IMG/VR virus record: IMGVR_UViG_3300027874_000580
Span: 1-35,316 of that record
DNA: 35,316 bases
Reading direction: 5' to 3' (one strand)
DNA from: a virus
Taxonomy: Duplodnaviria; Caudoviricetes
Below the pieces are notes generated by a model, which saw nothing but the letters and a program-made list of their open reading frames with translations, was not told where the DNA came from and searched no databases. A program made the position numbers and the translations under genes. Below are positions 2,880 to 33,423 of this stretch, one piece after another; position 1 is the stretch's first letter, and the number at the start of each line of letters is the position of its first letter.

Positions 2880-4754
2880 TCATCTCCCTGTCGGCTCCAG
2901 CAGGCCGCTGGACTCGCGCAGCTTGCCCGCCTCGATCAGCCGGTCCACTTCGGTGCTGATCGTAGTCAGCGGCATGTCCGCGATCAGCTCGGTGATCAGC
3001 TCGCCCATGCCCATCGGCCGATTCGCCAGCGCGAGCAGGATCATCAACTGCCGCGAGCTGGCCGCCTCGGCGTCGGCCTGGATGCCCGCTAGCACCTGCC
3101 CCGCCGCCTCGATCGTGTCGGCCATCACGTCCCACACCAGGCTGTCGGGGTGGCGGATGGTCAGCGACTCCGCGGTCTCGTACGGGTCGGCCAGCTTGTC
3201 CGTCCGCATCGTGACCTCGGGCCGGTTGTCCGGCCCGGAGGCATACCCCAGGCCCCAGGTGGGGGTGCCGTCGGAGAAGTACCGGGGCAGGTCGCGGGGG
3301 TTGTTCGGCAGGTTGACGTAGCCGCCGGTGACCGCGTCCCCGGTGCGCCCGCACCACACGTTCCCGCCGACCAGGATGGACCGGACCTCCTGGGCCTTCA
3401 GCTCGGCCAGGGACGGCACCTGGGCGGCCAGCCGCAGCCGGAAGCCGACCTTGCGGCCGAGCTTCAGCAGGTCGAGAATCAGCGCCGCCGCGCCCTTGGA
3501 GGCCAGCAGGATCGGGGCCTCGTCAATGGTGATCTCGATGATCGGCACGTCGACCATGAACGGGTTGAAGAACCCCATCCCCCTGCGCCGCTTGCAGGCC
3601 GGGCCGCACCGCCCCCGGCCGCAGTCGCCGTGCTCGCGGCACCATTCCAGCTCGCTCATCCAGGCCGACCGGGCGAACATCGCCTTGTGCAGCGCGGCCA
3701 GCCAGGTCATGCACTCCTCGATGCCGCGGGCGTAGGGCACGACGTCCCGCCAGGCGGGCAGCGCCTGGCCTTCCTGCGGGTCGAGGATCACTGGGGCGAT
3801 GTACCCGGAGCTGGCGGAGATGGCCAGGGACAGGTTCAGCGCGGCGGTCTTGCCGCTGCCGTCGGCCCCGGCGAAGATCGAGTGCTTGACGCCGTCCTCG
3901 GGCAGGTTGTAGAACGCCTCGTGCACCGGCTTGCCGTCGGGGAACCGGCCGATCACCGCGCGGCCGGTTCGCGGGTCGATGCCGATGCCGTCCCACAGCC
4001 GTACCGCGTCCAGGGTGCCCGAGTTCAGCAGGGTGAGCAGGCCGTGGTGCTTGCGCCCGTCGGGATGGGACTCCGCGAACGCCTCGGTGACCGCCTTCTC
4101 GAACGTGGCGGCGATGTCGGTGCCGCAGGACAGGATCTTGTCGATGGCGTTCCGCGCGCCGTCGAGGCAGATCTCGTACTGGACGCCGTTGTCGATCGGC
4201 TGCGGCGGGCCCAGCCACGCCACCCATTTCTTGGTGACCGCGAGCCGGGTGAACTTGGCCTCGATCGTCTCGGGCGGCGGGGCGGCGGCGGTGGTGGGCT
4301 TCCACCGGTAGTGCTCCAGCCAGAAGCAGTACGGGATGAACCACCCGGCGAGGGTGACCAGCAGCCACCAGCCGGTGCCCAGCGGCATCAGCGCCATCGA
4401 CCAGGCCGCCGCCCAGGACACCCCGCCCTGGACGTGCCAGCGGTAGAACTTCTCCCGGTGCCGGGTGGCGATCACCACGCACACCTGGGTGCCGAGCGCG
4501 GCAAGCACACCCCACCACGGGTGGCGGGCGAGCGCGGCGAGCGGGCCCGCAGCCATCAGCGCCAGCCAGGTGAACGGCAGCAACTGGTGGCGGAACCGGA
4601 AGACGTGGATCTCGGCCAGGGGACTGGGCCTGGTGCCGCGCTGCTGCGCGTCGAGGATGGCCTGCAGGTGCTTGGCGTCGGTGCCGTTGGCCGTGACGAT
4701 AACCGGCCCCGGCGTCTTGCGCCGGGGCCGGTCATCGGTGCGGGCCTTGGCCAC
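2880..4754 (-). CDS. traB: TraB-like FtsK/SpoIIIE conjugal DNA translocase
   Basis: N-terminal transmembrane helices, Walker A GADGSGKT, ILDPQ, Walker B IEITIDE, GRKVG...AAQVP and a C-terminal winged-helix-like segment. Probable start is GTG 4754. Confidence 0.8.
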   Translation of the reverse strand: MAKARTDDRPRRKTPGPVIVTANGTDAKHLQAILDAQQRGTRPSPLAEIHVFRFRHQLLPFTWLALMAAGPLAALARHPWWGVLAALGTQVCVVIATRHREKFYRWHVQGGVSWAAAWSMALMPLGTGWWLLVTLAGWFIPYCFWLEHYRWKPTTAAAPPPETIEAKFTRLAVTKKWVAWLGPPQPIDNGVQYEICLDGARNAIDKILSCGTDIAATFEKAVTEAFAESHPDGRKHHGLLTLLNSGTLDAVRLWDGIGIDPRTGRAVIGRFPDGKPVHEAFYNLPEDGVKHSIFAGADGSGKTAALNLSLAISASSGYIAPVILDPQEGQALPAWRDVVPYARGIEECMTWLAALHKAMFARSAWMSELEWCREHGDCGRGRCGPACKRRRGMGFFNPFMVDVPIIEITIDEAPILLASKGAAALILDLLKLGRKVGFRLRLAAQVPSLAELKAQEVRSILVGGNVWCGRTGDAVTGGYVNLPNNPRDLPRYFSDGTPTWGLGYASGPDNRPEVTMRTDKLADPYETAESLTIRHPDSLVWDVMADTIEAAGQVLAGIQADAEAASSRQLMILLALANRPMGMGELITELIADMPLTTISTEVDRLIEAGKLRESSGLLEPTGR

Positions 4755-4761
4755 CGGTCCC

Positions 4762-5655
4762 CTACGTGGTGTGGAAGGCCGGCTCCGCGGCCTGCTCACC
4801 GGACGCCGCCACGGCCTCGTGGGTGGGCCCGTAGGTGTTGGTGACCCGGTCATGCAGCCCGGCGGCCAGATCCTTCACCCGGTTCAGGTTCTCCTTGACC
4901 TCGGCGCAGGCACGGGCCAGGTCCGCGCCGATGCCCAGGGTGGTGCCGTCGGTGGGGATGAGCCCGCCGAGCTGGTCGATCAGCGGGCCGATCTGCTCCA
5001 GCGCGGACACGTCCAGGCTGTCGGCGGCCTGGGCGACCTGCTCGCTGCTCTTGACGACCTCCTCGTAGCTGGCGTCCGACCCGCCGCCGCCGCCGTTGCC
5101 CGGTGCTCCGTTGCTCTCACTCACTGGTGTACCTCCGTTGGTTGATCCGTTTCCTTGCCCCGTCTGTGTTGGTGTCACCCAGCCGCCGAGTGGCCCGTAC
5201 TCCTCCCAGGTGAGCGGGACCGCGCGCCGGCCGGGTGTCTTGCCGTCGGCCAGCGGCGGCCCGTCCGGGTTCTCGCTGCGGCGCTGGTGCCCCTGGGCGG
5301 TGACCGCCTGCCAGTGCTGCCGCGCCTCGTCCCACAGCTTCCGCCGCTCGGCCGACCGCTTGGCCTCGTCCCGGTGGGCGGTCGCCCGGGTGGTTGACAG
5401 GACGTGGTGGTGGTCGTTCATCCCGGCGCGGAACCCCTCGCGGGTGACCGGGAAGCCGTGCCGGATCTCGTTCATCCACCACCCGGTGGTCGCCTGGCGG
5501 GCGGCGCGGCGGGCGTTGCTGTTCCGGTCGTAGTGCCCGCCCCGGGCGGTCGCCCGGGTGCGGGCGGCGGTGCGCTGCCTGCCGACCGCCGTGGTGGACG
5601 CCCCCCAGGCCTGGGTGATCGCGTAGCACAGCCCGATGAAAAACAGCAGTTCCAT
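4762..5655 (-). CDS. Putative transfer accessory protein (TraA/Spd-like position)
   Basis: Directly upstream of traB. Hydrophobic N-terminus, helical C-terminal domain, and an internal in-frame GTG at 5124 with a GGAGG SD. Confidence 0.65.
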   Translation of the reverse strand: MELLFFIGLCYAITQAWGASTTAVGRQRTAARTRATARGGHYDRNSNARRAARQATTGWWMNEIRHGFPVTREGFRAGMNDHHHVLSTTRATAHRDEAKRSAERRKLWDEARQHWQAVTAQGHQRRSENPDGPPLADGKTPGRRAVPLTWEEYGPLGGWVTPTQTGQGNGSTNGGTPVSESNGAPGNGGGGGSDASYEEVVKSSEQVAQAADSLDVSALEQIGPLIDQLGGLIPTDGTTLGIGADLARACAEVKENLNRVKDLAAGLHDRVTNTYGPTHEAVAASGEQAAEPAFHTT

Positions 5656-5656
5656 G

Positions 5657-6076
5657 TCAGCCTCCGGTGCTGATCGAGGTCGACGCCTGCGACACCGTGG
5701 ACGGCAGGCTGTTCAGCGCGGCGAACGGGGTGGCCGCCGCCGCGACCAGCACGCCGAGCACGATGGCGATGTAGAAGTTGTGGCCCTTGCCCGAATGCCG
5801 GGGCATCGAGTGGTGTACGAACAGGAAGATCAGCACGGCGACGATGGCGGCGAAGATCGCCGCTGCGGAGTAGCCGAGGATCTGCGCGCCCAGCTTGCCG
5901 ATCAGCCCGGCCGTGAACATGAGGACGCGGGCCAGGATGCCGACCAGGCGGCCGGTGGTGCCGACGGTCACGATGCCGATGAACACCACGATCGGGGCGG
6001 CTTTCTTGAACCGGCCCAGGGCGTGGGCGGTGATGGCGAGGGCGATGGCGATTAGCCCCCATTCAGCCGGTGTCAT
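5657..6076 (-). CDS. Multi-pass membrane protein (Spd-like)
   Basis: About four hydrophobic segments, within the traB operon. Confidence 0.7.
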   Translation of the reverse strand: MTPAEWGLIAIALAITAHALGRFKKAAPIVVFIGIVTVGTTGRLVGILARVLMFTAGLIGKLGAQILGYSAAAIFAAIVAVLIFLFVHHSMPRHSGKGHNFYIAIVLGVLVAAAATPFAALNSLPSTVSQASTSISTGG

Positions 6077-6085
6077 GGTCAGCTC

Positions 6086-6487
6086 CTAGATCACTCCGGT
6101 CAGGACCAGCACGGTGACGGTCAGCACCGTGAGGCACAGCAGCAGCTTGGGCGGTGAGTCCCCGGACCACACCAGCAGGTAGGCCAGCGGCGCGACCGCG
6201 AAGGCGTGCACCGCGCCGTAGGCCAGCCGGGGCCAGCGCAGCGCCCCGGCGGAGTAGTACTCCGCGGCGGTGCGGTGCATCGCCCACAGCGCCATGATCG
6301 AGGGCGGCGCGGCGTGGACCACCGAGGCACCGGACAGCGCGCCGTTCAGCACCCGGTCGATCGTGCCGGCGGTGAGGGAGCCGACCCGCTGCGGCCGGTC
6401 CTCTCGCGCGCGGGCGCGTGTGTGCGCGTTGATCCCCGGGATTTCCTCCTCGGTCGGGCGGACGGGCAGGTCGACGGGCGCGGTCAT
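6086..6487 (-). CDS. Membrane protein in transfer cluster
   Basis: PPS motif followed by two C-terminal hydrophobic helices. ATGA overlap with the upstream gene. Confidence 0.7.
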   Translation of the reverse strand: MTAPVDLPVRPTEEEIPGINAHTRARAREDRPQRVGSLTAGTIDRVLNGALSGASVVHAAPPSIMALWAMHRTAAEYYSAGALRWPRLAYGAVHAFAVAPLAYLLVWSGDSPPKLLLCLTVLTVTVLVLTGVI

Positions 6488-6723
6488 GCGGCTCTCCCCT
6501 CGGTGCCGGCGGCCAGGCCGGCGAGGAACGTGGCGGCCTGGTGCATCAGCGCCTGGCGGTCGGCGGAGCGGGCGGCGGTGGCCCGGAACCAGTCGTAGGC
6601 GGTGGCGAGCTGCGCCTCACCGGTCGGCGCGGCCTGGAGCTGGTCCCGCCAGCGCTCGGGCCGGGCGTCACAGCGGCGCGGCTGCCGGGTGCCGTCGGCC
6701 AGCAGGCGGCGGTGGCCAGCCAT
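6484..6723 (-). CDS. Hypothetical protein
   Basis: ATG at 6723 overlaps the upstream stop (TGATG). Helical sequence QLATAYDWFRATA. Confidence 0.6.
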   Translation of the reverse strand: MAGHRRLLADGTRQPRRCDARPERWRDQLQAAPTGEAQLATAYDWFRATAARSADRQALMHQAATFLAGLAAGTEGRAA

Positions 6724-6902
6724 CAGTCCCACCATCCTTCCGGTGCGGTGATCACGATCAGCCATGGCCAGCGGGCTTCGATCTGGGCCCAGGCCCGGCG
6801 GCCGATGATCAGCATCAGCCCGGCCAGGATGGCCGCCGGGATAACGATCATCGCCCCCTGCACGAACATGATCAGCATGAACTCCAGCAGCAGCCCGATC
6901 AT
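6723..6902 (-). CDS. Small membrane protein (59 aa, not in ORF track)
   Basis: MIGLLLEFMLIMFVQGAMIVIPAAILAGLMLIIGRRAW...; start and stop are both coupled to neighbours. Confidence 0.65.
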   Translation of the reverse strand: MIGLLLEFMLIMFVQGAMIVIPAAILAGLMLIIGRRAWAQIEARWPWLIVITAPEGWWD

Positions 6903-7090
6903 GCGGCCCTCATCTCATACCGGCCCGAGCGGACCTTGAAGTCCGGCCAGGTGTCCCGGTCCCAGCCGTCGGCCGACAGCCAGTTCTGCGCGGCGCGCTG
7001 CAGCCCGTCGGGAACGTCCCGCTCGTCCAGCCGGATGGTGGCAACATGGCGGCCGGAATCGGTCTCGATGTGTGCCTCACGCTCTGCCAT
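6899..7090 (-). CDS. Hypothetical protein, first gene of transfer operon
   Basis: ATG 7090 preceded by a GGGAGG SD (MAEREAHIETDSG...). Confidence 0.6.
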   Translation of the reverse strand: MAEREAHIETDSGRHVATIRLDERDVPDGLQRAAQNWLSADGWDRDTWPDFKVRSGRYEMRAA

Positions 7091-7174: not shown

Positions 7175-7918
7175 GTGGCCCTGTGGAAAACAGTCGCCCA
7201 GGCGCTGGAAGACGACATCACCAGCGGCAAGCACAGCCCGGGTGACGAGCTGCCGTCCGAAGCCGAACTCGCCCGCGAGCACGGGGTGTCCCGCAACACC
7301 GTGCGCCGGGCGCTGGAGCACCTGACCACCCGCGGCCTGATCCGCGGTGAGGGCACCGCCCGGCGGCGGGTGGCCGAGCGGGTGCTGCTGGAGATCCACG
7401 TCACCCGGCCGGCCTCGCGGGTGGCTGGTGGCCAGTCACCCACCCCGGGCGCGGACTCGTGGGCGCACGACGTCGCCGCGCTCGGCCTGGAGGCGGGCGT
7501 TGAGCTGTCAGTGTGGGCGGCCGAGGCGGGCGGCATGGCCGGGTGGCTGGAACTGGACCCCCGCGACCAGGTAGTCGTGCGTGAGCAGCTCCGCACGGCG
7601 GCCGGCCGGCCGCATAACCTCGCGGCCTGGTGGTTCCCCCGGCTGATAGCGGCGGGCACCAAGCTGGTCTACCCCGACGACATCACCGAGGGCTCGGTCC
7701 CCTACCTGGGTGGCATCGGGTACGCCCCGGTCACGTTCACCGTGGAGATCGAGGCCCGGATGCCGACCGTGCATGAGGCGGGCCGGCTGCTGATCGCTCC
7801 TGGCGTGCCGGTGCTGGTGGAGTACCGCACCGGGGCCACCCAGTTCAGCCGGCAGGTGGTGTTTTGCTCGGTCACCATCTGGCCGGGGGACCGCACCCGG
7901 CTGCTGGTGGACCTGTGA
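7175..7918 (+). CDS. GntR (HutC subfamily, UTRA) transcriptional regulator, KorSA-like
   Basis: PGDELPSEAELAREHGVSRNTVRRALEHL winged HTH. C-terminal UTRA-like EIEARMPT..E...L....GVPVL. Divergent from the transfer operon. Confidence 0.9.
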   Translation: MALWKTVAQALEDDITSGKHSPGDELPSEAELAREHGVSRNTVRRALEHLTTRGLIRGEGTARRRVAERVLLEIHVTRPASRVAGGQSPTPGADSWAHDVAALGLEAGVELSVWAAEAGGMAGWLELDPRDQVVVREQLRTAAGRPHNLAAWWFPRLIAAGTKLVYPDDITEGSVPYLGGIGYAPVTFTVEIEARMPTVHEAGRLLIAPGVPVLVEYRTGATQFSRQVVFCSVTIWPGDRTRLLVDL

Positions 7919-8435: not shown

Positions 8436-9122
8436 TTAGCCCGCGCCGTTGCTGTGGGCCCGCGCGGCGGGGATCGCCTTCTGCGCGGCGTACTGGGTGA
8501 CGCCGTGCCGTTCCACGACTTTCCGCCAGGACAGCGGCAGCCCGTGCCCGGCGTCCTCGATCAGCTTGGCCACCAGGCCCGGGTCGGGGGTGCCCGCTGG
8601 ACGCCGGGCCCGGGTGGCCTTCGCCGCACGAGATGCAGGACGCCGCCGTGAAGCCGCCCCAGGCCGGGGCTCCTCGGACGGCGCGGTGTCCTGCCCGCGG
8701 GTGTGCAGCTTGACCAGCCCGAGCCCGACGCCCAGGCATATCGCCGCGCACAACGGCGCGGCGGCAGCGGCGATCTTCCACGACAGCGGGGCGTACTGGT
8801 AGTGCAGCCAGTTGCCCGCCATCGACGCGGCCAGGCCGAACAGGGTCAGGCCCCACATCCGGCCCTTCATCCACCACCCCTCGTCGCGGCGGGTGGCGCT
8901 GTACAGCCTGCCCTCACCGACCACAACGAACACATCAATGATCAACGGGAACGCTACTGCGGCCCACAGCGGGCTGCCATGATGGGTGGCGAAATCCAGC
9001 AGGTTCCGGTACGAGAGCACCAGTGCGGCGATCGTCGCGGCGACACATACCCCGCCCACCACCAGGTCGGCCACCCGGACGTCCTGGGGTGTGCCGTCTC
9101 GCGCCCCTGTACTTACAGCCAC
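8436..9122 (-). CDS. DUF2637/SpdA-like membrane protein with C-terminal HTH-like segment
   Basis: LSYRNL..FA..HG....A..FPLIID...S...N..H pattern, four TM helices, C-terminal LSWRKVVERHGVTQYAAQK. The start is uncertain (GTG 9122). Confidence 0.75.
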   Translation of the reverse strand: MAVSTGARDGTPQDVRVADLVVGGVCVAATIAALVLSYRNLLDFATHHGSPLWAAVAFPLIIDVFVVVGEGRLYSATRRDEGWWMKGRMWGLTLFGLAASMAGNWLHYQYAPLSWKIAAAAAPLCAAICLGVGLGLVKLHTRGQDTAPSEEPRPGAASRRRPASRAAKATRARRPAGTPDPGLVAKLIEDAGHGLPLSWRKVVERHGVTQYAAQKAIPAARAHSNGAG

Positions 9123-9153
9123 GAGGACCACTGTACCGCCGGGAAGGGGTCTT

Positions 9154-9684
9154 GTGCCTACAAGCAACCGCAGCGCGGGGCGGATCGAGGATGAGCTGTG
9201 GCTGCCGTTCCTGGCGACCGCGCGGGACCGGGGCATCACCAACACCGACGCGATGCGCGAGGCCCTCGCGGACTGGGTGGCCAAACACCAGGCGGCCCCG
9301 CCCGGCGGGGAGCATCCGGGCGGGGCCGCACAGCCGAGGTTAGGGACAAGTGGCGACGATCCAGCCGGTGGGCCCGGTCTGGCTGTACTCCGTCTTGTAC
9401 TGGCACTGGCCGTTGATGAACATCCACGCCCGGCCCCAGCGCATCGCGCCGCCGTCCTTGGTGTGGGCCACCGAGTGGATGCCGTTGTCGTAGTAGACCT
9501 TGCCACCGTAGGTGGTGTTGCCGGACCAGTCCCTCACCTGGGACCACAGCGCGGCGCAGCCGTCGGTGGTCGAGGAGTCGGAGTCCGGGTTCCACCACAC
9601 GCCGAGGTAGCCACCCGGGCCGAGCCCGATGGCGTTCTTGACGGTGCCCTGGTCGCACGGGCCTGGGATGCGCTGGCCCGCTGA
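9154..9684 (+). CDS. Ribbon-helix-helix (CopG/Arc-like) DNA-binding protein; only the first ~47 codons look genuine
   Basis: Purine-rich GGGAAGGGG before the GTG. MPTSNRSAGRIEDELWLPFLATARDRGITNTDAMREALADWV fits the RHH pattern. The frame then runs antisense into the next gene. Confidence 0.55.
   Translation: MPTSNRSAGRIEDELWLPFLATARDRGITNTDAMREALADWVAKHQAAPPGGEHPGGAAQPRLGTSGDDPAGGPGLAVLRLVLALAVDEHPRPAPAHRAAVLGVGHRVDAVVVVDLATVGGVAGPVPHLGPQRGAAVGGRGVGVRVPPHAEVATRAEPDGVLDGALVARAWDALAR
9292..9329. terminator. 14-bp perfect stem-loop
   Basis: GCGGCCCCGCCCGG-N10-CCGGGCGGGGCCGC, just past the stop of 9340..9777. Confidence 0.65.
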
Positions 9685-9777
9685 GGCCGAGCTGGCCGGG
9701 AGCGCCAGGACGGCGGCTGCCGCAACGGCAAGAGCCGCGCCCGTGAGCGCGGCCCTGCTGATCCGTAGTTTGTGCAT
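9340..9777 (-). CDS. Secreted hypothetical protein
   Basis: SD AGAAAGGA. Signal peptide MHKLRISRAAL...ASSASA. Mature domain has four Cys. Confidence 0.8.
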   Translation of the reverse strand: MHKLRISRAALTGAALAVAAAAVLALPASSASAGQRIPGPCDQGTVKNAIGLGPGGYLGVWWNPDSDSSTTDGCAALWSQVRDWSGNTTYGGKVYYDNGIHSVAHTKDGGAMRWGRAWMFINGQCQYKTEYSQTGPTGWIVATCP

Positions 9778-9801
9778 GGGTGAGATCCTTTCTGTGGTGG
9801 C

Positions 9802-9840
9802 GGGCGGGCCTTCCTGCCCCCCTTGGAGGAAGGCCCGCCC
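9802..9840. terminator. 14-bp perfect stem-loop
   Basis: GGGCGGGCCTTCCT-N11-AGGAAGGCCCGCCC, downstream of the 13083-9873 operon. Confidence 0.65.
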
Positions 9841-9872
9841 CCTTGGCCCGGCGGTGGATCGCCGCCGGGGGC

Positions 9873-10262
9873 CTACTCGATGGGCTTGCCGTCGGCGTTG
9901 GTCATCCGCCCCGCCTCATCCCAGCAGATGACGGTGTCGTGGTGCATGTCCGCGCCGTCCGGGTGGCCCGCCGGGCGGTAGTGGCCGGCGTCGGCGTAGC
10001 AGTGGTAGGCCGCGCCCGGGTAGGGCCGGTGCTCGCACAGCATCGGCGGTGCGTGCTCGGCCTCGAAGTGGGTGGCGTAGGCCGCGCCCGCGGCCTTGGT
10101 CTCGGTGTCCTCGACGGTCGCCTCGTCGGCGGGGCCCAGGACGGTCACGGTGGCGGGGATGTCGCGGCCCCTGATCTTCCGCTTGCAGCGCGGGCAGGTC
10201 AGGTAGTAGCCGTTGACGTCCACCCCCGCCTCGGCGTACGGGAGCCCTAGTGGCGTGGTCAT
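9873..10262 (-). CDS. Hypothetical Cys/His-rich protein
   Basis: CPRC...H....H zinc-finger-like pattern, ATGA coupling. Confidence 0.7.
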   Translation of the reverse strand: MTTPLGLPYAEAGVDVNGYYLTCPRCKRKIRGRDIPATVTVLGPADEATVEDTETKAAGAAYATHFEAEHAPPMLCEHRPYPGAAYHCYADAGHYRPAGHPDGADMHHDTVICWDEAGRMTNADGKPIE

Positions 10263-10555
10263 GGCAGATCCTTGTAGTCGCAGCCCCAGACGCTCTGGGA
10301 CAGGTTGTCACGGACGGAGATCAGTTCCTGGGCCTGCCAGGACAGCGCGCTGATCACGCGGGACAGTTCCCCGATGCCCTCGATGGTGAGCGAGTCACCG
10401 GCACGGGCGAACTGCCGGATGCGGTGCTCGATGCGCCGCGCCGGGTCGCAGCCGGGGGCGTGGATGCCGCCGCTCGGATTGCCGCAGGCCGGGCAATCGA
10501 GGACGACCGCCTTGTTCCGGTCCACGGTGGCCAGGACTTCCTCCAGCCCGCTCAT
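10259..10555 (-). CDS. Hypothetical protein with CxxC..H..C
   Basis: ATG 10555 overlaps the upstream stop (MSGLEEVLAT...CPACG..HAPGC). Confidence 0.65.
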   Translation of the reverse strand: MSGLEEVLATVDRNKAVVLDCPACGNPSGGIHAPGCDPARRIEHRIRQFARAGDSLTIEGIGELSRVISALSWQAQELISVRDNLSQSVWGCDYKDLP

Positions 10556-11049
10556 TCCGCACCGCCCAGGCCGTAGAGCTGCTCGCCGTCCTCGGTGAAC
10601 GCGGGGACGTTGATCTCGGGCATGCCACCGTGGTGCTGGCCGCCGCCCTCGCCGCAGCCGCACTGCCGGCACCAGGGCTCGGGGGCGTACTGCTCCTCGG
10701 GCCCGCCGTCGAAGCCGTGCGCGGCGCTGCCGGCGTGCATCCAGGCACCGGAGCGCAGCATGGCGTCCTCGGTGTCGAGGCAGGGCGTCAGCCACTCGAC
10801 CGCCTGTCCGGCGGCGATGGCCACGCGGGCCTCCTCGCCGGTCAGGTAGCCCGTGTAGCGGGACCGGGCGGTGGGCTTGGTGTTCAGCACCCCGGCGGCG
10901 ATGGCGCGGAAGGTGGACCGGTAGCTGCGCGAGCTGGCCGGCGGCATGGTCAGCTCGTAGACCCGCGCGCCCTCGCGCAGGGCGGTGGGCACCTGCGCGC
11001 GGGTGATGCCGATACGGTCGGAGCCGTAGCCGATGGTGTACAGCTTCAT
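10552..11049 (-). CDS. Hypothetical protein
   Basis: High GC3 frame, tight spacing, WCRQCGC motif. Confidence 0.7.
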   Translation of the reverse strand: MKLYTIGYGSDRIGITRAQVPTALREGARVYELTMPPASSRSYRSTFRAIAAGVLNTKPTARSRYTGYLTGEEARVAIAAGQAVEWLTPCLDTEDAMLRSGAWMHAGSAAHGFDGGPEEQYAPEPWCRQCGCGEGGGQHHGGMPEINVPAFTEDGEQLYGLGGAE

Positions 11050-11051
11050 GA

Positions 11052-12137
11052 TCAGTTACCTGCAATTCTGGTGATCTGGTCCGCGATGTCGCGGACCCGC
11101 TCGTAGCCGGCGTCGGCGTCGGTGGTGGCCGCCACGGCGGCGGGCCCGGTCGCGGCCGGCGGCTCCTCGGCGTACGGGTCCTCCCACTGCCATTCCGGCC
11201 ACAGGTAGAACTCCATCTCCCACCAGCCGAAGGAGTAGCCGTCCGGGGCGACGTTGTCGTTCAGCCACCGCTCGACGCCGTCGGCGGCGTCGGACAGCAC
11301 TTCCTCCTCATCGAGGGTCAGGCTCTCGGCGGGACGCGGGCTCATCGAGGCCATCTTCCGGTCGGCCAGGTCGATGACCTCGGGCACCGGGTAGCCGTGG
11401 CTCTCGGCCTTCTGGATCAGGTGCGCGAGGCCGTACTGGCCCCAGTGCCCCTCGACCCAGCAGCCCTGGTCGGCCTCGGTGGCCTCGATGATCTGCGGGG
11501 GCTGGCGGTAGAAGTGTGGCTGCGGCCCGTCGTACACGCAGATCTCGGTGCCGGGCTCGCAGTAGCAGAACGCATCGCAGGCGGCGCAGGAGTGCAGCCG
11601 GCCCGGCTCGTGCCCGTTCTCGGCGTGGTCGGGGCGGAAGGCGACCGCCCAGCCGGCCGGCTCGCTCTCATCGGCGGTGTCGACCACCACGGTCACGTAG
11701 GTGCCGGGGGTGCGCCGGATGTGGGCTTCGAGCCCGCCGCCGACGAACTCCGACGGGTGCATGACCGGGCCGGTGTAGGAGTACTGGCCGGTCCAGCCGT
11801 CCAGCAGAACCCAGCCCTGCTGCCACGCCTCGCGGACGTAGTCGGCCTCGTGCTCGGCGGAGATCTGCCCGTCATCGTCACAGGCCATCGTCAGCTCGGG
11901 CGCGTGCACCCCGGCGGCGTCGGAGATCCCGCCGCCGCCGTGCACCCGCACCGGGTGGCCGAAGTCCATGATGTCGTTGAGGGCCTTGCCCTCATACGGC
12001 GCGGTGACGATGTGGTAGTCCATGTTCCGCTCCGCGATCCGGTCCCCGATGCCGCCGCTGGTGCGGTGCCCGCACGCGCAGGTGAGGAACCGCTGGCCTA
12101 GCTGGTCTTGCTGGCCCACGACGCTGTGGGTGATCAT
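11052..12137 (-). CDS. Mosaic multi-domain hypothetical protein with shared C-terminal tail (A)
   Basis: SD AAGGAGA and ATG 12137. Several Cys/His clusters. Ends DAGYERVRDIADQITRIAGN. Confidence 0.8.
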   Translation of the reverse strand: MITHSVVGQQDQLGQRFLTCACGHRTSGGIGDRIAERNMDYHIVTAPYEGKALNDIMDFGHPVRVHGGGGISDAAGVHAPELTMACDDDGQISAEHEADYVREAWQQGWVLLDGWTGQYSYTGPVMHPSEFVGGGLEAHIRRTPGTYVTVVVDTADESEPAGWAVAFRPDHAENGHEPGRLHSCAACDAFCYCEPGTEICVYDGPQPHFYRQPPQIIEATEADQGCWVEGHWGQYGLAHLIQKAESHGYPVPEVIDLADRKMASMSPRPAESLTLDEEEVLSDAADGVERWLNDNVAPDGYSFGWWEMEFYLWPEWQWEDPYAEEPPAATGPAAVAATTDADAGYERVRDIADQITRIAGN

Positions 12138-12850: not shown

Positions 12851-13083
12851 TACCGGCGCTCCGTCCCGTCCGCGTTGATCACGACGGCCATGGTGTGCCG
12901 CTTGTAGCGGATGGTCACCCGGCTGACGCCGAAAGTCTGCGCGTCGGCCTTGTTGACGGCGCGGCCGGTGTGCGCGCCCATAGACAGGACGGTGAAGTCC
13001 TTGCCCTGGTTCCACGCCTCGATGGCCTTGGCCTTGGAGGGGTAGTCCCGCCCGTACGCGGGGCCGACGGTGATGTCTTCCAT
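12850..13083 (-). CDS. Small phage-type hypothetical protein
   Basis: SD AGGAGA. MEDITVGPAYGRDYPSKAKAIEAWNQGKDF. First gene after promoter repeat 1. Confidence 0.75.
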   Translation of the reverse strand: MEDITVGPAYGRDYPSKAKAIEAWNQGKDFTVLSMGAHTGRAVNKADAQTFGVSRVTIRYKRHTMAVVINADGTERR

Positions 13084-22835: not shown

Positions 22836-22850
22836 GATCCTGATCTTCTC

Positions 22851-23675: not shown

Positions 23676-23702
23676 GTCAGCTCCCTGGTCCTGGTGGCAA
23701 GC

Positions 23703-24788: not shown

Positions 24789-26718
24789 CTCCTGGTACGG
24801 TCTCGCCCGGCTGGACGTCGATCATCCAGCGGAGCACGGTGCCATCTTGGGTGATCTGCTCATGCCTGGCCTCCTTGACCAGGCCGAGCTGGTAGAGGCG
24901 GATGTCGACGGTGCCCGCCGACAGCGACCACACCTGGCGGAACGGTGTGGTGCGGCCGAACCGGTCCCCCCGTCCTGTCTTCTGCTCCCGGCCCCGGAAC
25001 GTCGGGTCGGGCTGCATCCAGAAGATCCCCTCGGCCTCGGGGAGGTCGATCGCCTCGCCGCCGGCGTCGGTGATGAAGATGATCCGCACCTGGCCGCTGC
25101 GGAACTGCTGGGCGGCGGCGTCCTTCTCGGTGTGGCCCATGCCGCCGGTGATCTTCGTCCAGCCGATGTTCGCCTCGGCCAGTTTCGCCTCCGACAGCCG
25201 CACGCAGGCGGGGGAGTTGATGCCGATGATCCACTGGCCGGGCTCGTTGTCGAGGAAGTCCATCAGGTCATCGACCTTGTTGGACGGCGCGCACATGGTG
25301 ACGGCTTGGTCGCTGAACCCCACCGCGTCCTCGACGTCGGTGGTGGCGACGGTCGCGGTGGCGAGCTGGCACAGCCGCCCGAACTGCACCACCGAGTTCG
25401 CTGGCACCAGGGTCTCGCCGGGCTCCAGCTCGGCCAGGCCGATCTTGGCGATGGCGTCGTAGACCCGCTTCTGCCGGGGTGCCATCGGCGGGTAGCGGAA
25501 CTCCGGGTCGGCCATCGCCGGCTCGCCGGGGCGGGCCATCTCGCGCGGGATGCGCCGGAAGTAGGGCATGGTCACCGCGTGGAACGTGGCCTCGGTGTCC
25601 GGCCGCAGGTCGAGGATCACCTTGCCCTTGCCGGCGAAGGCGAAGTCCTGCAGCGCGTACAGGTCCAGGTACTTGGACCGGGACGGCCAGGCCCGGGGGT
25701 CGAGGCCGTGCAGGATCGCCCACAGGTCTTTGACCGAGTTCGGTGTCAGGGTGCCGGTGGTCGGCCAGCAGTTCTCGGAGTGCATCATCAGCCACCACAC
25801 CGCGCGGGACTGCTTGGAGTGCGGGTCCGCGAGGCGGTGCGCCTCGTCGGGGATGACGGTGCGGAACCCGCGCCCGCTCTCCCCCCAGGCCAGCTCGTTG
25901 AACTCCTTCTCGCACTGCTCACACGCGGTGGCCGATTTGCCGGTGGACCCGCCGTGCTTATTGCAGGAGACAAACGCTTGTCCCGGGTAGGCGGCCAGCC
26001 GGGTGTGGAACCGGACGTTCTGCCAGACGATGATGCCGACATCGGCGTCCCCGGCCGCGATCTTGGCGATGGCGCTGCGCCGCTTGGCCGCGGAGTCGGT
26101 GATCAGCACGGTGCGCAGCTCGGGTGCCCAGGTGCCCAGTTTCCGCTGCCAGGACAGCGGCGCGGAGTCGGGGCAGATCACCAGCGCCGGCAGCGCGGAC
26201 TCCTGCTCGTGCAGGTACTGCATGGCCCGGATCAGCGGCGGCGTCTTGCCGTTGCCGCGGGCGTCCCCGAGGATGTTGCGCCGCCAGTTCAGCAGGTACT
26301 GTACCGCGCCGCGCTGCGGGCCGTTGAGCTGCGGGCCGCCAGGCAGCTCCTTGCCCACCAGCCAGGACAGGATCTCCGGGTCGGTGGCGTCCAGCGCCGT
26401 CCGGTCGGCCATCCGCTTAGCGAACTGCTCACGGGCGGCGGCCACCCAGGCCTGCAGGCCGGGGTAGATGTGGATGCCCGGGATGTAGGCGGGCAGCTCG
26501 GAGTCGGCGGCGTACACCGGCCTGGGCGGGAACACGGTCATCAGCGCGCCGAAGGCGGGCCAGGACAGCGGCACCTTCCAGAACCCGTCGTCCTTGCTGT
26601 GGTTGCAGCCGGGGATCTGCTTGGCCAGGACGTACTCAGGCGGGCTGCAGCCGATGGCCATCACCGGCGGGTCCGAGCCGGGGATGACGTCGGCCCACGC
26701 GCCGCTAGATCCGGTCAT
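24760..26718 (-). CDS. SNF2-family helicase
   Basis: GDARGNGKT, LVICP, DEAH, TGT and EQKTGRGDRFG motifs. Confidence 0.9.
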   Translation of the reverse strand: MTGSSGAWADVIPGSDPPVMAIGCSPPEYVLAKQIPGCNHSKDDGFWKVPLSWPAFGALMTVFPPRPVYAADSELPAYIPGIHIYPGLQAWVAAAREQFAKRMADRTALDATDPEILSWLVGKELPGGPQLNGPQRGAVQYLLNWRRNILGDARGNGKTPPLIRAMQYLHEQESALPALVICPDSAPLSWQRKLGTWAPELRTVLITDSAAKRRSAIAKIAAGDADVGIIVWQNVRFHTRLAAYPGQAFVSCNKHGGSTGKSATACEQCEKEFNELAWGESGRGFRTVIPDEAHRLADPHSKQSRAVWWLMMHSENCWPTTGTLTPNSVKDLWAILHGLDPRAWPSRSKYLDLYALQDFAFAGKGKVILDLRPDTEATFHAVTMPYFRRIPREMARPGEPAMADPEFRYPPMAPRQKRVYDAIAKIGLAELEPGETLVPANSVVQFGRLCQLATATVATTDVEDAVGFSDQAVTMCAPSNKVDDLMDFLDNEPGQWIIGINSPACVRLSEAKLAEANIGWTKITGGMGHTEKDAAAQQFRSGQVRIIFITDAGGEAIDLPEAEGIFWMQPDPTFRGREQKTGRGDRFGRTTPFRQVWSLSAGTVDIRLYQLGLVKEARHEQITQDGTVLRWMIDVQPGETVPGDDHDRTPAA

Positions 26719-27357: not shown

Positions 27358-27816
27358 TTACACGTTACGCGCGGCCTCCGACAGTACCGCCGCGATGGCC
27401 GGGGTCATCTGCCCTTCGCGCATCAGCCACGCCAGCATGTGCTGGGCGGCGGACTGCGCGTCGTCTTTGCCGGGCACCCACCAGCCGAGGGCCTCCAGCA
27501 TCGCCCTGGTGGCTTTCTTGCGCTGCTCGGGCCTGGCCGACAGCAGCCGGCACCGGTACCTGGTGGCGTACCGCCGCACCACCCCGATCATCTCGATGGC
27601 GTGGTGCGCGTCGTCCTGCGGCGTGCCGGGGATGATGGTGTAGGTCTCGTACCCGATGGTCAGCGCGGGCCCCCACCGGGCGCAGGAGTCCTCGACGTGG
27701 TCGCCGGCCTCCATGAACTTCCACTCGTCCGCGAAGAACGCGGTGCCGGACTGCCACAGCCACGCCAGCCCGGTGTCACCGCCCGGGTCCACCCACAGCA
27801 CCACCGGGGGAATCAC
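27358..27816 (-). CDS. RuvC-like Holliday junction resolvase
   Basis: LWVDPGGDTGLA, IGYE, EMIG and DDAQSAAQH RNase H-fold motifs. Confidence 0.75.
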   Translation of the reverse strand: MIPPVVLWVDPGGDTGLAWLWQSGTAFFADEWKFMEAGDHVEDSCARWGPALTIGYETYTIIPGTPQDDAHHAIEMIGVVRRYATRYRCRLLSARPEQRKKATRAMLEALGWWVPGKDDAQSAAQHMLAWLMREGQMTPAIAAVLSEAARNV

Positions 27817-28415
27817 CGCCGGGCTACCTTCCGTATCACGACCTGGCCTGAGCGCTGCTCGGCATAGACCTTGCCCGCGAAACCGAGCCGCCGGATCGAA
27901 CCGTTGATCGCAGCGATCGAGCTGCCGTCCACGGTGGCGGCATCCTCACCGGAGTCAAGGAACGCCCGCAGCACAGCCCGGCTGACCGAGGGGTACTGGG
28001 CGGGCATCTTCGGGGTCAGTTGGTACTCCACCAGGTCTGGGTTCTGCAGCTCCCAGTCACGCACGGCACGGCGTTCCCGGGCAGCGCCCATCTGCTCCCA
28101 GGCCAGCAGTTTCGATTCGCAGCGCCTCTGGTTACACAGCCAGACATAGCTTCGGATATGGTCGATCGGGCTGACTACCAGCCGCCGCCGCCTGGATTTG
28201 CGGAGGCAGTACCCGCACCCCTGGCCATTGAACTTCCGCTGGGTGATGTGGAGCTTGACCCATATCCTGGCCCTGGCCCGCCACAGCAGGATGTCGCGGT
28301 CCTCGTTCTTCCAGTAGCGCGGGCCGAGCCCGTTGTGCGGGGCAGCCTCGCGCATCTTTTCCAGCGTTGGTGCTGTCACTTGATCCACCGTTCCTTCATG
28401 ATCTGGCCCTCCCAC
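27813..28415 (-). CDS. Hypothetical protein with CxxC (start uncertain)
   Basis: Fills the gap between the polymerase and resolvase genes. CGYC..C....C. Confidence 0.55.
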   Translation of the reverse strand: MGGPDHEGTVDQVTAPTLEKMREAAPHNGLGPRYWKNEDRDILLWRARARIWVKLHITQRKFNGQGCGYCLRKSRRRRLVVSPIDHIRSYVWLCNQRRCESKLLAWEQMGAARERRAVRDWELQNPDLVEYQLTPKMPAQYPSVSRAVLRAFLDSGEDAATVDGSSIAAINGSIRRLGFAGKVYAEQRSGQVVIRKVARR

Positions 28416-30178
28416 AGGATCGGCACCCGGTAGTGCTCGCGGTCGGTGATCAGCGCGGTGACATCCCGCAGCACCGCCCCGGCGTCGGCGGCGGGGACCT
28501 CCGCGAAGATCTCGTCATGGTGGGTGATCCGCAGCGCCGGGCCGTAGCCGGCCGCGTCGAGCCCCACCACGGCGTTCTTCAGGATCTCCGCGGAGCTGCC
28601 CTGGATGCGGTAGTCGATGAGGGCGTAGGCCTTGTCGGCGTACAGCCGCCGGCCCCACAGCGTGTGCACCTGCGGCCGGTGGCCGCGCCGTTTCTGCGAC
28701 TGCACCAGCCGGAAGGAGTCCCGGGACAGGGTGCGGTACCGCGCCTTGAATCCCTCGTAGATGGGTTCGAGGTCGAGGACCGACACCCCCGCGGTGGCCG
28801 CCGCCGTGTCCAGGCCGGACCCGTAGATGGTCGCGTAGCTGGTGTTCTTGGTCATGGTGTAACGCGGGTCGCGCTTGGAGATCTCGGTGCGGTAGATCTG
28901 CCCGGCCAGGTTGACGAAGAACGACGTGCCGCTGTCATCGCAGAAGGCGAAGTCCGCGATGAGCTGCCGGTCCCCGGAGAAGTGCGCCGCCATCCGCATC
29001 TCGATCTGCGCGGCGTCCCACGAGCAGAACACCATGGACGGCCGGGGCCGGAAGGAGCCCCGGATCTGCGGGAAGTCCCGGTCGAAGGTCTGCATCGCCG
29101 GCTCTGTGACCGACTGCCGGGACGTGTGCGCCGCGCCGATCGAGTGGATCGCGTAGTGGATCACGTCCTGTTCGTCGGCCATCGCCAGGAACTTGCCGAA
29201 GTGCCGCCCGAGCACCGCCTGGGCCTTGCGGGCGTTGCGCAGCGTGGAGATCAGCCCGGCCGCCTGCGGGTAGGCGGCGGCGTAGTGCTCCATGGTCTCC
29301 TTGTCGATCTGCGGCCGGCCGGTCTTGGCGGTGCGCCGCTCGATCGTCACCCCCGCCCGCTGCAGTGCCGCGCCGACCTGCTCCCCCGACTCCACCGAGG
29401 TCACCCCGTGCTCGGCGGCCAGCCAGGCGAGGGCCTGGGCGCACCAGGCGCTGATCTGGTCCTCCCAGTGCATGATGTAGGGCCGGTCGATCATCATGCC
29501 GGTGTGCATCATCTGCGCGCAGATCCGCGCGTAAGCCAGTTCGAGGTCGTAGGCGTGGCCGAAGGACCCGCGGACCTCGGGCAGGTGCCTGGCCAGCAGG
29601 TGGCTGGTCAGCACCGGGTCACCCGCGCCGTAGCGCCAGAACGGCGGGAAGTCATCGGGCACCGTGGCGTAGGTCCACTTCTGCGCCTTCATCGCCTCGT
29701 CCAGCTCACCCTGCCAGGCCATCGCCGTCGGGTCGATGTCGTGGGCGGCGCGGGGCTTCAGCGCGAGCGCCTTGGACGGGTGCATGCCTGGCGGCGCGGA
29801 ATCGGCCAGGTGGGAGGCGAGCTGGGCGTCCTCGATCTGCGCCCAGTTCAGCCACAGCCCGTGATGGTGGCCGAGAACGAGGTAGTCATACGGGGCGTTG
29901 AAGAACCCGATCCGGCCGGTGTATTTGGCCAGAACCTCGTGCGCGCCGCCCATCCATTCCGGCGGGAACGCCCAGCCGTTCCACAGGTCCCCGAGCTGGG
30001 TCATCCGGTGCTTATCACGCCACCAGGCCAGCCCCGCCGATTCGGTGTCGGCGCACAGGATGTCGCGGCGCTCACCGGCCCACCTGCGGAAGGCGTCGAG
30101 GGTGTCCAGGTCGGTGACATGGTGGAGCTGCACCTGGTCGAGCACGCCGCCGCGGGATGGTGCCTGAGCTGTCGTCAT
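28376..30178 (-). CDS. Family A DNA polymerase with 3'-5' exonuclease, no 5'-3' exonuclease (phage type)
   Basis: Exo I ADTES, Exo II NAPYD, Exo III YGAGD. Motif A DAAQIEMR, B KNTSYATIYG, C HDE. Confidence 0.92.
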   Translation of the reverse strand: MTTAQAPSRGGVLDQVQLHHVTDLDTLDAFRRWAGERRDILCADTESAGLAWWRDKHRMTQLGDLWNGWAFPPEWMGGAHEVLAKYTGRIGFFNAPYDYLVLGHHHGLWLNWAQIEDAQLASHLADSAPPGMHPSKALALKPRAAHDIDPTAMAWQGELDEAMKAQKWTYATVPDDFPPFWRYGAGDPVLTSHLLARHLPEVRGSFGHAYDLELAYARICAQMMHTGMMIDRPYIMHWEDQISAWCAQALAWLAAEHGVTSVESGEQVGAALQRAGVTIERRTAKTGRPQIDKETMEHYAAAYPQAAGLISTLRNARKAQAVLGRHFGKFLAMADEQDVIHYAIHSIGAAHTSRQSVTEPAMQTFDRDFPQIRGSFRPRPSMVFCSWDAAQIEMRMAAHFSGDRQLIADFAFCDDSGTSFFVNLAGQIYRTEISKRDPRYTMTKNTSYATIYGSGLDTAAATAGVSVLDLEPIYEGFKARYRTLSRDSFRLVQSQKRRGHRPQVHTLWGRRLYADKAYALIDYRIQGSSAEILKNAVVGLDAAGYGPALRITHHDEIFAEVPAADAGAVLRDVTALITDREHYRVPILWEGQIMKERWIK

Positions 30179-31480: not shown

Positions 31481-31699
31481 ATGATCATTTTGGCCGCTGT
31501 GCTGCTGGCCGACCCCACGCTGCCGCACCAGATCGTGCTCCGGTTCACCGGGCAGGCGATCGTCGTGTCGTGCAACTGCCTGCGGGTCCGCCATGACCGG
31601 GGCTGGCACTGGCAGCCGCTGGGCTCCAAGACCCGGTGGGAACCGGGCGAACCGGCCGCGCTGTGGCGCGAGCACATGGCGGCGGTGCCCGGTGACTGA
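31481..31699 (+). CDS. Hypothetical protein
   Basis: H...VSCNC...WREH pattern. First rightward gene. Confidence 0.6.
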   Translation: MIILAAVLLADPTLPHQIVLRFTGQAIVVSCNCLRVRHDRGWHWQPLGSKTRWEPGEPAALWREHMAAVPGD

Positions 31700-32657
31700 G
31701 CACACCTGCCTGAACTTCGACGGCGACCCGCGGGTAGGAGCGCTCGGCCTGGGCGCGGCGGCGCTGCGCTACCAGGCGATGGGATATGCGGTGCTCGCGC
31801 TCGGGCAGGGCGGCAAGCGGCCCTCCTCGATGTTCGCGCCACCACCGGGAGCCGAGCCCGGCTCCGCGGGCGTGCACTGGGCCACCACCGACCCGCGCAT
31901 GGTCTCCTACGTGTGGGGCCGCGAGCCGCTGTCCGGCGTCGGCGTGGCCACCGGCAGGGGCAGCAACCTGGTGGTGGTCGACCTCGACGTCAAGCGCGGC
32001 GAGGACGGCCCCGGCAATTTTGAACGGTTCCAGATAGAGGCGTCCGCCGTGGGCGTGCTGGACTGCTATGTACCCGCAAACGTCGTAGTGTCTACGCCAT
32101 CTGGGGGATACCACATCTGGCTGCGCACCCCGCCGGGGCTCGCGGTGCCGACCCGCCCTGGCATCCTGCCCGGCGTCGACATCAAGGGTGATGACGGCTA
32201 CGTCGCCGCGGTGCCATCGAGGGTGTGGGAAGGCGACGTGCTGCTGCCCTACCGGATGGTGCGCGGCTGCCCGTGCACCGTGCCGGCCGCGCCGCCATGG
32301 TTCCTGCGGTGGATCGAGCAGGCGCAGGCCACCGGCACCGACCATGGTGAGAACGGCCAGCCGCTGCCCGGCCTGGAGCTGCTCCAGGCCGCCGGTCTGC
32401 CGGTAGGGGAGCGGAACGTCACGCTGTACCGCCTCGCGTGCTCGCTGTACCGGCGCTACGGCACCGGCCCGGTGGGCGTGGCCAGGGCCAGGATCGACCT
32501 CGAAACCGTGTGGGCGGCCACTGACAAGCGCGGCTTCACCATCGCGGAGAAGGAGCGCACCATCAGCGGTGCGCTGTCGTTCGTGCGACGATCTGAGCGG
32601 GAACGGGACGAACGGATGCGGGCCCTGACCACCTGGCCCGCGTGGAACGGCAGGTGA
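31692..32657 (+). CDS. Bifunctional DNA primase/polymerase (Prim-Pol) with PriCT-like domain
   Basis: A.RY..MGYAV..L..GGKRP, ATTD, GVATG, VVVDLD, TPSGGYH, GVDIKG..GYV and GERN.TLYRLACSL. Confidence 0.9.
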   Translation: MTEHTCLNFDGDPRVGALGLGAAALRYQAMGYAVLALGQGGKRPSSMFAPPPGAEPGSAGVHWATTDPRMVSYVWGREPLSGVGVATGRGSNLVVVDLDVKRGEDGPGNFERFQIEASAVGVLDCYVPANVVVSTPSGGYHIWLRTPPGLAVPTRPGILPGVDIKGDDGYVAAVPSRVWEGDVLLPYRMVRGCPCTVPAAPPWFLRWIEQAQATGTDHGENGQPLPGLELLQAAGLPVGERNVTLYRLACSLYRRYGTGPVGVARARIDLETVWAATDKRGFTIAEKERTISGALSFVRRSERERDERMRALTTWPAWNGR

Positions 32658-32663
32658 CCACAG

Positions 32664-33002
32664 ATGCTGTATGACCTGGTGCTCGGGCTGATGTTCGCGG
32701 TGTGCGTCACCGCGTTCGTGGTGGCCCTCGGCGGGATCTGCGGGTATGGCATCCACACCGCCCAGGTGGTCGCGGTGATGCTGGAGACCCGCTACGGCTG
32801 GCGGGACTCCCGGGCGATCCTGCGCAAGCGGGCCCGGTCCAAGTACGGGCTGCCGCCCAGCCACCGCAAGCAGCGGGTGTTCGCCCCCGCCTACATGATG
32901 CGCAGGGAACTGCCCGCTGGTGATGGCGACACCCTGGTGATGATCCCCGACGACCCCACCTGGCGGGTCCGTGCGGAAATCGAGCGGAACCATGAGTGGT
33001 GA
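32664..33002 (+). CDS. Membrane-anchored hypothetical protein
   Basis: N-terminal hydrophobic helix. Confidence 0.6.
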   Translation: MLYDLVLGLMFAVCVTAFVVALGGICGYGIHTAQVVAVMLETRYGWRDSRAILRKRARSKYGLPPSHRKQRVFAPAYMMRRELPAGDGDTLVMIPDDPTWRVRAEIERNHEW

Positions 33003-33423
33003 CGGCGGCGAGCAGCTTGGGCTGTACGGGCAGGAACTGACCGAGGGCCACGCCCTGGCCCGGCAGCAGCTCGCCCGGCACGGCAAGGACCGGTACCCGA
33101 CGGTGGAGCTGCAGGCGGCCAAGGTGTGCGCCGAAGCCGGCGAGCTGATGGACGCGGTCTTGCACCACCACTACGCCGCGCACGGTGGCCGGTGCACCAG
33201 CCCGTGCCAGCACACCATCGCCGCCTCGATCCGCAAGGAACTGGCCGACACCGCGCTGGCGCTGTACACCCTCGCGGGCAAGCTGAACGTCAACCTGATC
33301 GAGTGCATGGCCGAGCTGGTCTGGAACGACGAACGGGACTTCCGGCCACCACAGCGGCTGATCATCAGAACAGGTGAAGGAGATGACCATGGATCTGGAC
33401 ATACTGACCGTCGACCCCGCTGA
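32992..33423 (+). CDS. MazG-like nucleotide pyrophosphohydrolase
   Basis: K..AEAGEL.DAV ... IRKELAD.......LA..L.VNL. Confidence 0.75.
   Translation: MSGDGGEQLGLYGQELTEGHALARQQLARHGKDRYPTVELQAAKVCAEAGELMDAVLHHHYAAHGGRCTSPCQHTIAASIRKELADTALALYTLAGKLNVNLIECMAELVWNDERDFRPPQRLIIRTGEGDDHGSGHTDRRPR

Follow-up and report, generated by a model that had tools for sequence, protein, structure and literature searches.

A TraB-type gene cluster on the genome of an uncultured tailed phage: a candidate system for virion-free DNA transfer

Results

Gene content and assembly of the locus

IMG/VR record IMGVR_UViG_3300027874_000580 is a 35,316-bp virus sequence, classed as a provirus and 44% complete; its whole length is referred to here as the window. 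Near its left end lies a gene cluster of the type known from plasmid transfer operons, with a TraB-like DNA translocase, small membrane proteins and an HNH nuclease, together with a GntR-type repressor and a DUF2637 membrane protein; it is followed by an arm of small early genes and by a replication arm with a family A DNA polymerase (PolA). The features are collected in Table 1. None of the 63 open reading frames of the window is a virion gene. A preliminary description had proposed a hybrid of an actinomycete TraB cluster and a phage-type replicon, being either a conjugative phage-plasmid or a capsid-less element. We report here that 34 kb of the window come from a tailed phage of ~83 kb whose host is probably a member of the Streptosporangiaceae, and we favour the reading that its TraB operon would move the phage DNA without virions.

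A single 25,305-nt contig, with a depth of 10.6 in public runs, spans positions 959–26254 without differences; therefore the transfer and replication modules are not separated by an assembly break. The run that yielded this contig may also be the source of the window. Pieces from two other studies (X5 and X6) cover parts of both window halves, and one X6 piece likewise begins at 959. Moreover, L030, a stretch of an 82,950-bp metagenome contig, is 100% identical to window positions 959–14754. Upstream of 959, however, the window carries HPr (which we take it to be from its motifs) and ptsI, whereas L030 carries a 145-aa gene, an endolysin gene and tail genes. The ptsI contigs stop at 979 with a depth of ~4, and the HPr/ptsI fragment is joined to the phage through 21 identical bases (overlap 959–979). 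As L030 differs before 959 and the ptsI pieces end at 979, positions 1–958 are a chimeric join, which the preliminary description had overlooked, as it had the HNH and C5 methyltransferase genes. These 958 bases are the sole host-like DNA, so that provirus status was rejected, and they are probably the cause of the 'provirus' label.

On its own contig, L030 runs on from the window into endolysin and tail genes; there, only the endolysin and one minor tail gene are readable, the head genes being deduced from synteny. The relative G003 (75 kb, 96% complete) encodes a terminase, a Mu-type portal, a major capsid protein, a tail tube, a tape measure protein and an endolysin, followed by the HNH, TraB and membrane protein genes, GntR, DUF2637, the early genes and the same replication arm. 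This order (capsid-tail-lysin, HNH-TraB-membrane genes, GntR-DUF2637, early genes, PolA arm) is kept in G004, which like G000 is a fragment, and in the 83,687-bp genome G313:C195. The latter bears both capsid and TraB genes, with every module present once among 97 proteins and the same full set of tailed double-stranded DNA (dsDNA) phage genes as G003; its TraB and PolA are 46% and 59% identical to those of the window. These data indicate that the window belongs to a tailed phage and rule out the capsid-less element, given the endolysin and tail genes on its own contig and the terminase, portal and capsid genes of its relatives. The chimeric join at 958/959 and the lack of virion genes inside the window might still suggest an artefact of assembly or a replicon without a capsid; with the contig across 959–26254, the gene order repeated in three other genomes and the endolysin and minor tail genes beside the module, this has practically no chance of being correct.

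Several signs point to a circular map. The exact TraB and PolA proteins of the window have each been recorded on a contig 82,950 bp long, and the 82,950-bp contig ends at window position 20,945, ahead of PolA, which implies a circular map if the two contigs are the same. In one relative, two identical 21,776-bp stretches (L031 and L034) lie 80,046 bp apart on one contig, and G313:C195 has a 137-bp terminal repeat; the 287 bases after it differ and have no counterpart elsewhere in that genome. These signs are ambiguous, as circularly permuted lytic phages assemble alike. Among the 120 TraB homologs listed, the longest contig exceeds 70 kb in 16, and in 9 of these 16 it measures 77.7–84.3 kb. 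The 141-kb contig of L031/L034 corresponds to an ~1.8-fold wrap of an 80,046-bp genome; the TraB protein of this member is recorded on 123 contigs, and the member is therefore common. An AT-rich non-coding tract lies 3' of the D5 helicase region in three relatives (L179:1-346 and L183:3264-3687; L010:805-1192; L016:13104-13586); this tract, which contains the 137-bp repeat in G313:C195, is a candidate replication origin. At the right end of G003 lies a 3.2-kb tract of low-complexity repeats (L013:11786-15011); long frames are open on either strand, and no gene is called there. Very large genes (1,194–1,394 aa, with DUF7178) were seen within the head operon at L010:14340-19929 and L182:5912-12571, and one neighbour of these gave a PI3/PI4-kinase-like match.

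The TraB-like translocase

The TraB protein belongs to the FtsK family by a Pfam match under the cut-off (FtsK_SpoIIIE, E 9e-5) and by the fold of its AlphaFold model (pLDDT 89.6). The model matches FtsK, its closest solved fold, with E 8e-14, and the conjugation protein TcpA with E 1e-11. The Walker A, Walker B and arginine residues G296, G299, G301, K302, D411, E412 and R434 are invariant in all 50 homologs aligned, out of the 120 listed. The predicted N-terminal anchor consists of four helices at residues 55–148 in the model, one of which lies above the hydropathy threshold. The C-terminal domain has a helix-helix-helix-hairpin topology and its fold matches are mostly winged-helix proteins, all with E > 0.2. 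By analogy, this divergent subfamily would work like plasmid TraB. The ratio of non-synonymous to synonymous substitution rates (dN/dS) of TraB is 0.33–0.58 in 7 pairs at 69–99% identity, compared with 0.35 for the endolysin. The frames of the transfer module are intact and, judged from these rates, under purifying selection.

Partner genes of the transfer operon

The Spd- and KorSA-like partners announced in the preliminary description were recovered as the small membrane genes, the DUF2637 gene and the GntR/UTRA gene. The DUF2637 protein is presumably SpdB2-like. The 297-aa protein encoded directly upstream of traB weakly matches the product of the gene upstream of PhiNon1 traB (pairwise E 1e-4), and Atlas returned unnamed clusters only. 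An HNH gene, in most cases with a hydrophobic N-terminus, lies within 1 kb after traB in 26 of the 37 loci whose downstream sequence reaches 700 bp or more; these were drawn from 46 loci after two duplicates had been dropped, and several are near-identical. In a quick, midpoint-rooted TraB tree, in which long branches meet, most HNH-less loci group apart.

The recurrence of this HNH gene, with intact motifs, raises the question of whether the operon was captured from a plasmid for exclusion or host manipulation, the membrane proteins and HNH blocking or destroying incoming DNA, or slowing growth (pock-like toxicity), with no export of phage DNA. The toxicity of unregulated TraB in plasmids agrees with this (PMC4447253). 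It also agrees with the clt scan: no clt-type repeat array was found as clusters of exact 7–8-mers in the window, L030 and 10 related loci (12 sequences, with ~40 kb of the element's own genome outside the scan), where coding repeats only turned up and no non-coding cluster stood out. However, the entire motor and the C-terminal domain are conserved, and TraB homologs in other phage types are found without HNH; we consider exclusion unlikely.

Repressor, palindromes and promoter-like elements

In the window, gntR and the operon are 84 bp apart; 8 of 10 loci have a gap of similar length there, and the other two have uncertain starts. The window holds exactly four palindromes of the form YTGTA-N3-ACAR, at 2131, 7137, 9107 and 9152 (6 strand-hits versus 0.14 expected). 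All four fall within 2131–9163 and bracket the transfer module. They resemble the TraR site of pSVH1, TTTGGTACACAACT (PMC4447253).

A start signature had been described throughout the small-gene array and replication arms. The element AGGAGATGA is indeed enriched, with 9 occurrences in the window versus 0.53 expected, and precedes 6 of 24 early-arm, 1 of 12 left replication-arm and 2 of 10 right-arm genes; however, it precedes none of the 13 transfer-cluster genes. The signature is thus real, yet by itself it provides no tie between the transfer cluster and the phage. The promoter-like element TGTTGACAGA is repeated ahead of early genes in G001–G004 (loci L012, L013, L015, L018 and L019) and occurs five times in the window versus 0.02 expected; neither G022 nor G313:C195 has it. 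Its copies in the window overlap a TCAAC-N-GTTGA-like palindrome, which may be an operator. The idea that early promoters lie within hairpins was discarded, as a flanking inverted repeat of at least 6 bp was present at 2 of 29 sites only.

Distribution of the module

TraB has 128 homolog clusters at E ≤ 1e-20; the module occurs in many uncultured soil phages and also in several unrelated phage types. No TraB or DUF2637 homolog was found among 50,697 cultured phage records. The nearest non-phage TraB homologs are on actinomycete plasmids (42 records, 34 of them Streptomyces), and the one plasmid homolog inspected adjoins GntR and DUF2637 genes. In other phage types TraB is 38–40% identical, and G010 combines the capsid type of this phage group with the other TraB type. 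Among the 23 longer of at least 80 capsid-matched records, this TraB occurs in 3, and in only one of the 8 near-complete ones. Two syntenic sisters, G019 (95% complete) and G022 (complete, with terminal repeats), have capsid and PolA proteins with identities of 84–85% and 46–49%, respectively; no TraB, DUF2637, integrase or ParA was found in either. Because these sisters are without it, the module is an accessory one, gained or lost where the late and early arms meet, and since they keep capsid and replication genes, it is dispensable for replication or packaging. Two capsid relatives of 125–128 kb encode DUF2637 with no detectable TraB (G018:93284-93757 and G020:99939-100418), possibly a Spd-only state or a more divergent pump.

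Does the cluster have any role in the phage? The rarity of the cluster among capsid relatives and the related TraB proteins of unrelated phages and plasmids would suit a passenger, i.e., an AICE (actinomycete integrative and conjugative element) or plasmid remnant. On the other side, the endolysin gene lies beside the module in 12 of the 22 loci with at least 2.4 kb downstream, at TraB identities of 41–57% (some loci being near-identical), the third-position GC content (GC3) is 0.938 in both the transfer region and the early arm, and the frames are intact and under purifying selection. No assembly break was found between the modules, and no adjoining integrase or AICE Rep that would mark the cluster as a separate AICE inserted into a phage. 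The passenger explanation is already largely refuted and, in our opinion, highly improbable. Taken together, these comparisons suggest that the module moves between phages, yet is old and maintained in this phage group.

Integrase, partition functions and host

No integrase, ParA or ParB family was matched among the 97 proteins of G313:C195, and tblastn of that genome gave no match to the three integrases, two ParA and one ParB used as queries. Family searches for integrase, resolvase, recombinase, ParA and ParB were likewise empty in G000, G003 and G004, with positive controls detected; as the tyrosine-integrase model missed an integrase of G005 that PHROGs found, a divergent integrase could escape them. 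RepSA and RepAM had no Pfam match among the proteins of the window and G313:C195, and the AICE hallmarks (integrase/excisionase and an att site in a tRNA gene) were not found in the element. The more distant locus L044 has a ParB-like gene. Of the proposed conjugative phage-plasmid, the joint phage and transfer element thus stands, but no ParA/B or recognisable RepA was found.

The absence of detected ParA/B and integrase from TraB-bearing genomes, and FtsK as the closest solved fold, would be in keeping with a segregation motor that acts inside one mycelium in an FtsK/SpoIIIE-like manner, clearing or loading the phage genome at septa (e.g., of spore compartments) and replacing ParAB, with no horizontal transfer. 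However, the sisters G019 and G022 are without both ParA and TraB, the TraB phages G005 and G006 have integrases and would have no need of such a motor, and partners of the GntR and Spd-like kinds are what transfer operons typically have; this role is therefore improbable.

The host is probably a member of the Streptosporangiaceae: a bin of this family holds L024, and among 401 genomes of the family the capsid was found in 2 and a TraB homolog in 14. With regard to lifestyle, a carrier state agrees with the presence of the repressor and the finding of the phage in a host bin, and a virulent phage with the missing integrase, ParA/B and recognisable immunity repressor, which the TraB-less sisters also lack. 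It is conceivable, if doubtful, that such a virulent-type phage with its own polymerase uses the conjugation pump as a movement system during infection, sending its naked genome through septa or into neighbouring hyphae, past receptors and cell wall, with HNH processing the DNA at the pore.

Early and replication arms

The replication set announced earlier is confirmed by Pfam for PolA, SNF2, the PD-(D/E)XK exonuclease and Prim-Pol; RuvC, DUF669 and MazG were not confirmed by family libraries. The gene first called AAA_24 matches the PHROG Sak4-like family, and its homolog in G004 matches AAA_24 weakly. No DUF669 match was obtained in family libraries, and none for the RuvC-like profile in family libraries or the PDB. 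The MazG-like gene has no match to the MazG-like protein of PhiNon1. The best cultured-phage matches of PolA are 31–34% identical. In relatives, a separate D5-type helicase is encoded further along, past the end of the window.

In the early arm, the C5 cytosine methyltransferase gene has a poor codon fit in its middle part, and other methyltransferases are present in the relatives L031 and L044. A 110-aa protein (20001–20333) is conserved in G001–G004 and G313:C195 with no family match; this protein and the winged-HTH protein are candidate early regulators.

Table 1. Features of the window (strand: +, - or. for unstranded)
Position	Strand	Feature	Basis
1..958	+	Foreign to the element: presumed HPr and ptsI (N-terminal part) from a different bacterium	PEP-utilisers domains
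959..1157	+	3' end of 145-aa phage gene, next to endolysin in the true genome	L030:13598-14035
1154..1881	+	Last late/lysis-arm genes: 99-aa Cys-rich protein; 143-aa protein with N-terminal hydrophobic segment	
2131..2142	.	Palindromic YTGTA-N3-ACAR site 1, candidate GntR operator	
2241..2714	-	HNH nuclease with N-terminal hydrophobic (predicted transmembrane) segment, end of transfer operon	Pfam HNH E 3.6e-9
2880..4754	-	TraB-like dsDNA translocase of FtsK/SpoIIIE type (624 aa), with helical membrane region at the N-terminus, motor domain (GADGSGKT, ITIDE) and winged-helix-type domain at the C-terminus	Pfam, NCBIfam, predicted structure
4762..5655	-	Conserved 297-aa protein directly upstream of traB, TraA position	Homologs in most loci
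5657..6487	-	Two conserved small membrane proteins: 139 aa, 3 predicted transmembrane segments (TM); 133 aa, 2 predicted TM	Spd-like by position and topology
6484..7090	-	Three small genes opening the transfer operon: 79, 59, 63 aa	
7091..7174	.	Divergent promoter region with palindromic site 2 (7137-7148)	
7175..7918	+	GntR (HutC-type, UTRA) repressor, TraR/KorSA-like	Pfam GntR E 8.7e-17, UTRA E 2.2e-11
8436..9122	-	DUF2637 membrane protein	Pfam E 3.1e-10; 3 predicted TM
9107..9163	.	Palindromic sites 3 (9107-9118) and 4 (9152-9163), at and upstream of DUF2637 start	
9340..21609	-	Early small-gene arm	
13142, 17546, 18452, 18933, 21609	-	Five TTGACAGAA promoter-like sites in early arm	
13160..14710	-	C5 DNA methyltransferase in early arm	
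18449..18655		Small winged-HTH gene in early arm	
21765..24782	-	Recombination trio: Gln/Pro-rich SSB-like protein (family unconfirmed), Sak4-like annealase, PD-(D/E)XK exonuclease	
24760..26718	-	SNF2-type helicase	Pfam
27358..27816	-	RuvC-like protein, motifs only	D10, E57, D119 invariant in 7 homologs
28376..30178	-	Family A DNA polymerase (PolA)	Pfam E 8e-32
31692..32657	+	Prim-Pol	Pfam
32992..33423	+	Possible MazG-like NTP pyrophosphatase (weak)	PRA-PH E 0.066

Discussion

Our preferred reading, which we hold to be reasonably probable, is that the TraB operon pumps phage dsDNA across septa or between hyphae, virion-free and under GntR control. The pump role is proposed because the operon layout matches that of pSVH1, in which TraB alone is crucial for transfer and the spd genes serve spreading in the mycelium (PMC4447253). 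After entry, the genome would remain extrachromosomal and be copied by its own PolA, Prim-Pol and D5 helicase, while the divergent GntR protein would repress the operon through the four TGTA-N3-ACA palindromes, like TraR in Streptomyces plasmids. Upon derepression, TraB would form a membrane-bound hexamer, and the phage DNA would be recognised by the putative winged helix and translocated, with DUF2637 and the small membrane proteins in the role of Spd partners; the membrane-anchored HNH might cut the substrate or guard the pore against incoming DNA. We lean towards a receiving cell that would hold the genome in a carrier state, spreading replacing partition.

A number of points weigh against transfer of phage DNA by this operon. 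The transfer step itself is proposed by analogy with pSVH1. TraB scores 20.6 bits (E 1.4e-4) against NCBIfam plasmid_TraB, whose cut-off is 800, and its winged-helix assignment is drawn from topology and from fold matches that are not significant. Its dN/dS reaches 0.70 in one pair at 67% identity and ~0.8 in two pairs at 56–57%, probably through saturation. The clt array was not found in the scan described above. In G004, similar palindromes follow early promoters, so the palindromes may be unspecific to the transfer operon. Seven of the eight near-complete capsid relatives are without this TraB. No correlation was seen between the identities of TraB and those of the endolysin (rho 0.02, 28 pairs), and thus no co-divergence of the two was found. 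Finally, the probable Streptosporangiaceae host is taken from metagenome bins, and the filamentous habit of the hosts is assumed.

If the operon works as proposed, phages of mycelial bacteria would have a second route of spread, independent of virions and receptors, and models of host range, of the containment of infection at the level of compartments and of gene flow in soil actinomycetes would change. The module is kept intact in many uncultured soil phages, here on a backbone with no integrase or ParA/B detected, and genomes with it (G313:C195, G003) and without it (G019, G022) provide a natural control that makes the question testable.

Precedents are known. SpdB2 homologs on actinophages were proposed earlier to aid the spread of phage DNA (PMC4447253), and pZL12/phiZL12 (Zhong et al. 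2010, as cited in PMC3583192, PMC4487206 and PMC5431353) is a Streptomyces plasmid-phage with tra-dependent transfer; a 2025 review states that no phage-plasmid is known to be conjugative (PMC12282955). The TraR-Spd-TraB-clt systems of pSVH1, pIJ101 and pWTY27 share with the present element the divergent GntR gene, the small membrane genes and the FtsK-like translocase, and their operator core is similar; here, however, no clt array was found, the sequences are remote, a gene for a transmembrane HNH protein is added and the operon is phage-borne. Compared by description only, pZL12 has ParA/ParB (PMC4487206), whereas none is detectable in this phage group, which brings a PolA arm of its own and probably has hosts of a different family. 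PhiNon1 of Nonomuraea gerenzanensis (NZ_LT559120.1) is alike in its Streptosporangiaceae host, tailed-phage genes, DUF2637 and the similar gene upstream of a TraB homolog (31.8% identity over 53% of the query). In contrast, it is 59 kb long, has an HK97-type head and integrates at tRNA-Val (PMC5431353), and no PolA was found within the 50 kb inspected; the available part of PMC5431353 makes no mention of its transfer genes. AICEs such as pSAM2, SLP1 and pMEA300 (PMC2440964) have a TraB-type gene, a GntR regulator and Prim-Pol in common with the element, which differs in having no integrase/excision module or RepSA/RepAM match, a size of 83 kb and a full virion operon. The 86-kb plasmid NZ_CP031143.1 of Saccharopolyspora pogona (L166/L167), from a cultured strain, has a related capsid (56%), a Mu-type portal, GntR, DUF2637 and a 657-aa weakly FtsK-like gene barely alignable with the window TraB; unlike the element, it carries ParA and a tyrosine integrase and has no annotated PolA, and it looks like an unrecognised phage-plasmid. 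In the literature searched, mainly without subscription papers, we found none on a TraB-bearing PolA phage, on a membrane HNH in a TraB operon or on this phage group. What is distinctive here compared with these systems is the PolA backbone without a detected integrase, combined with a membrane-anchored HNH gene after traB.

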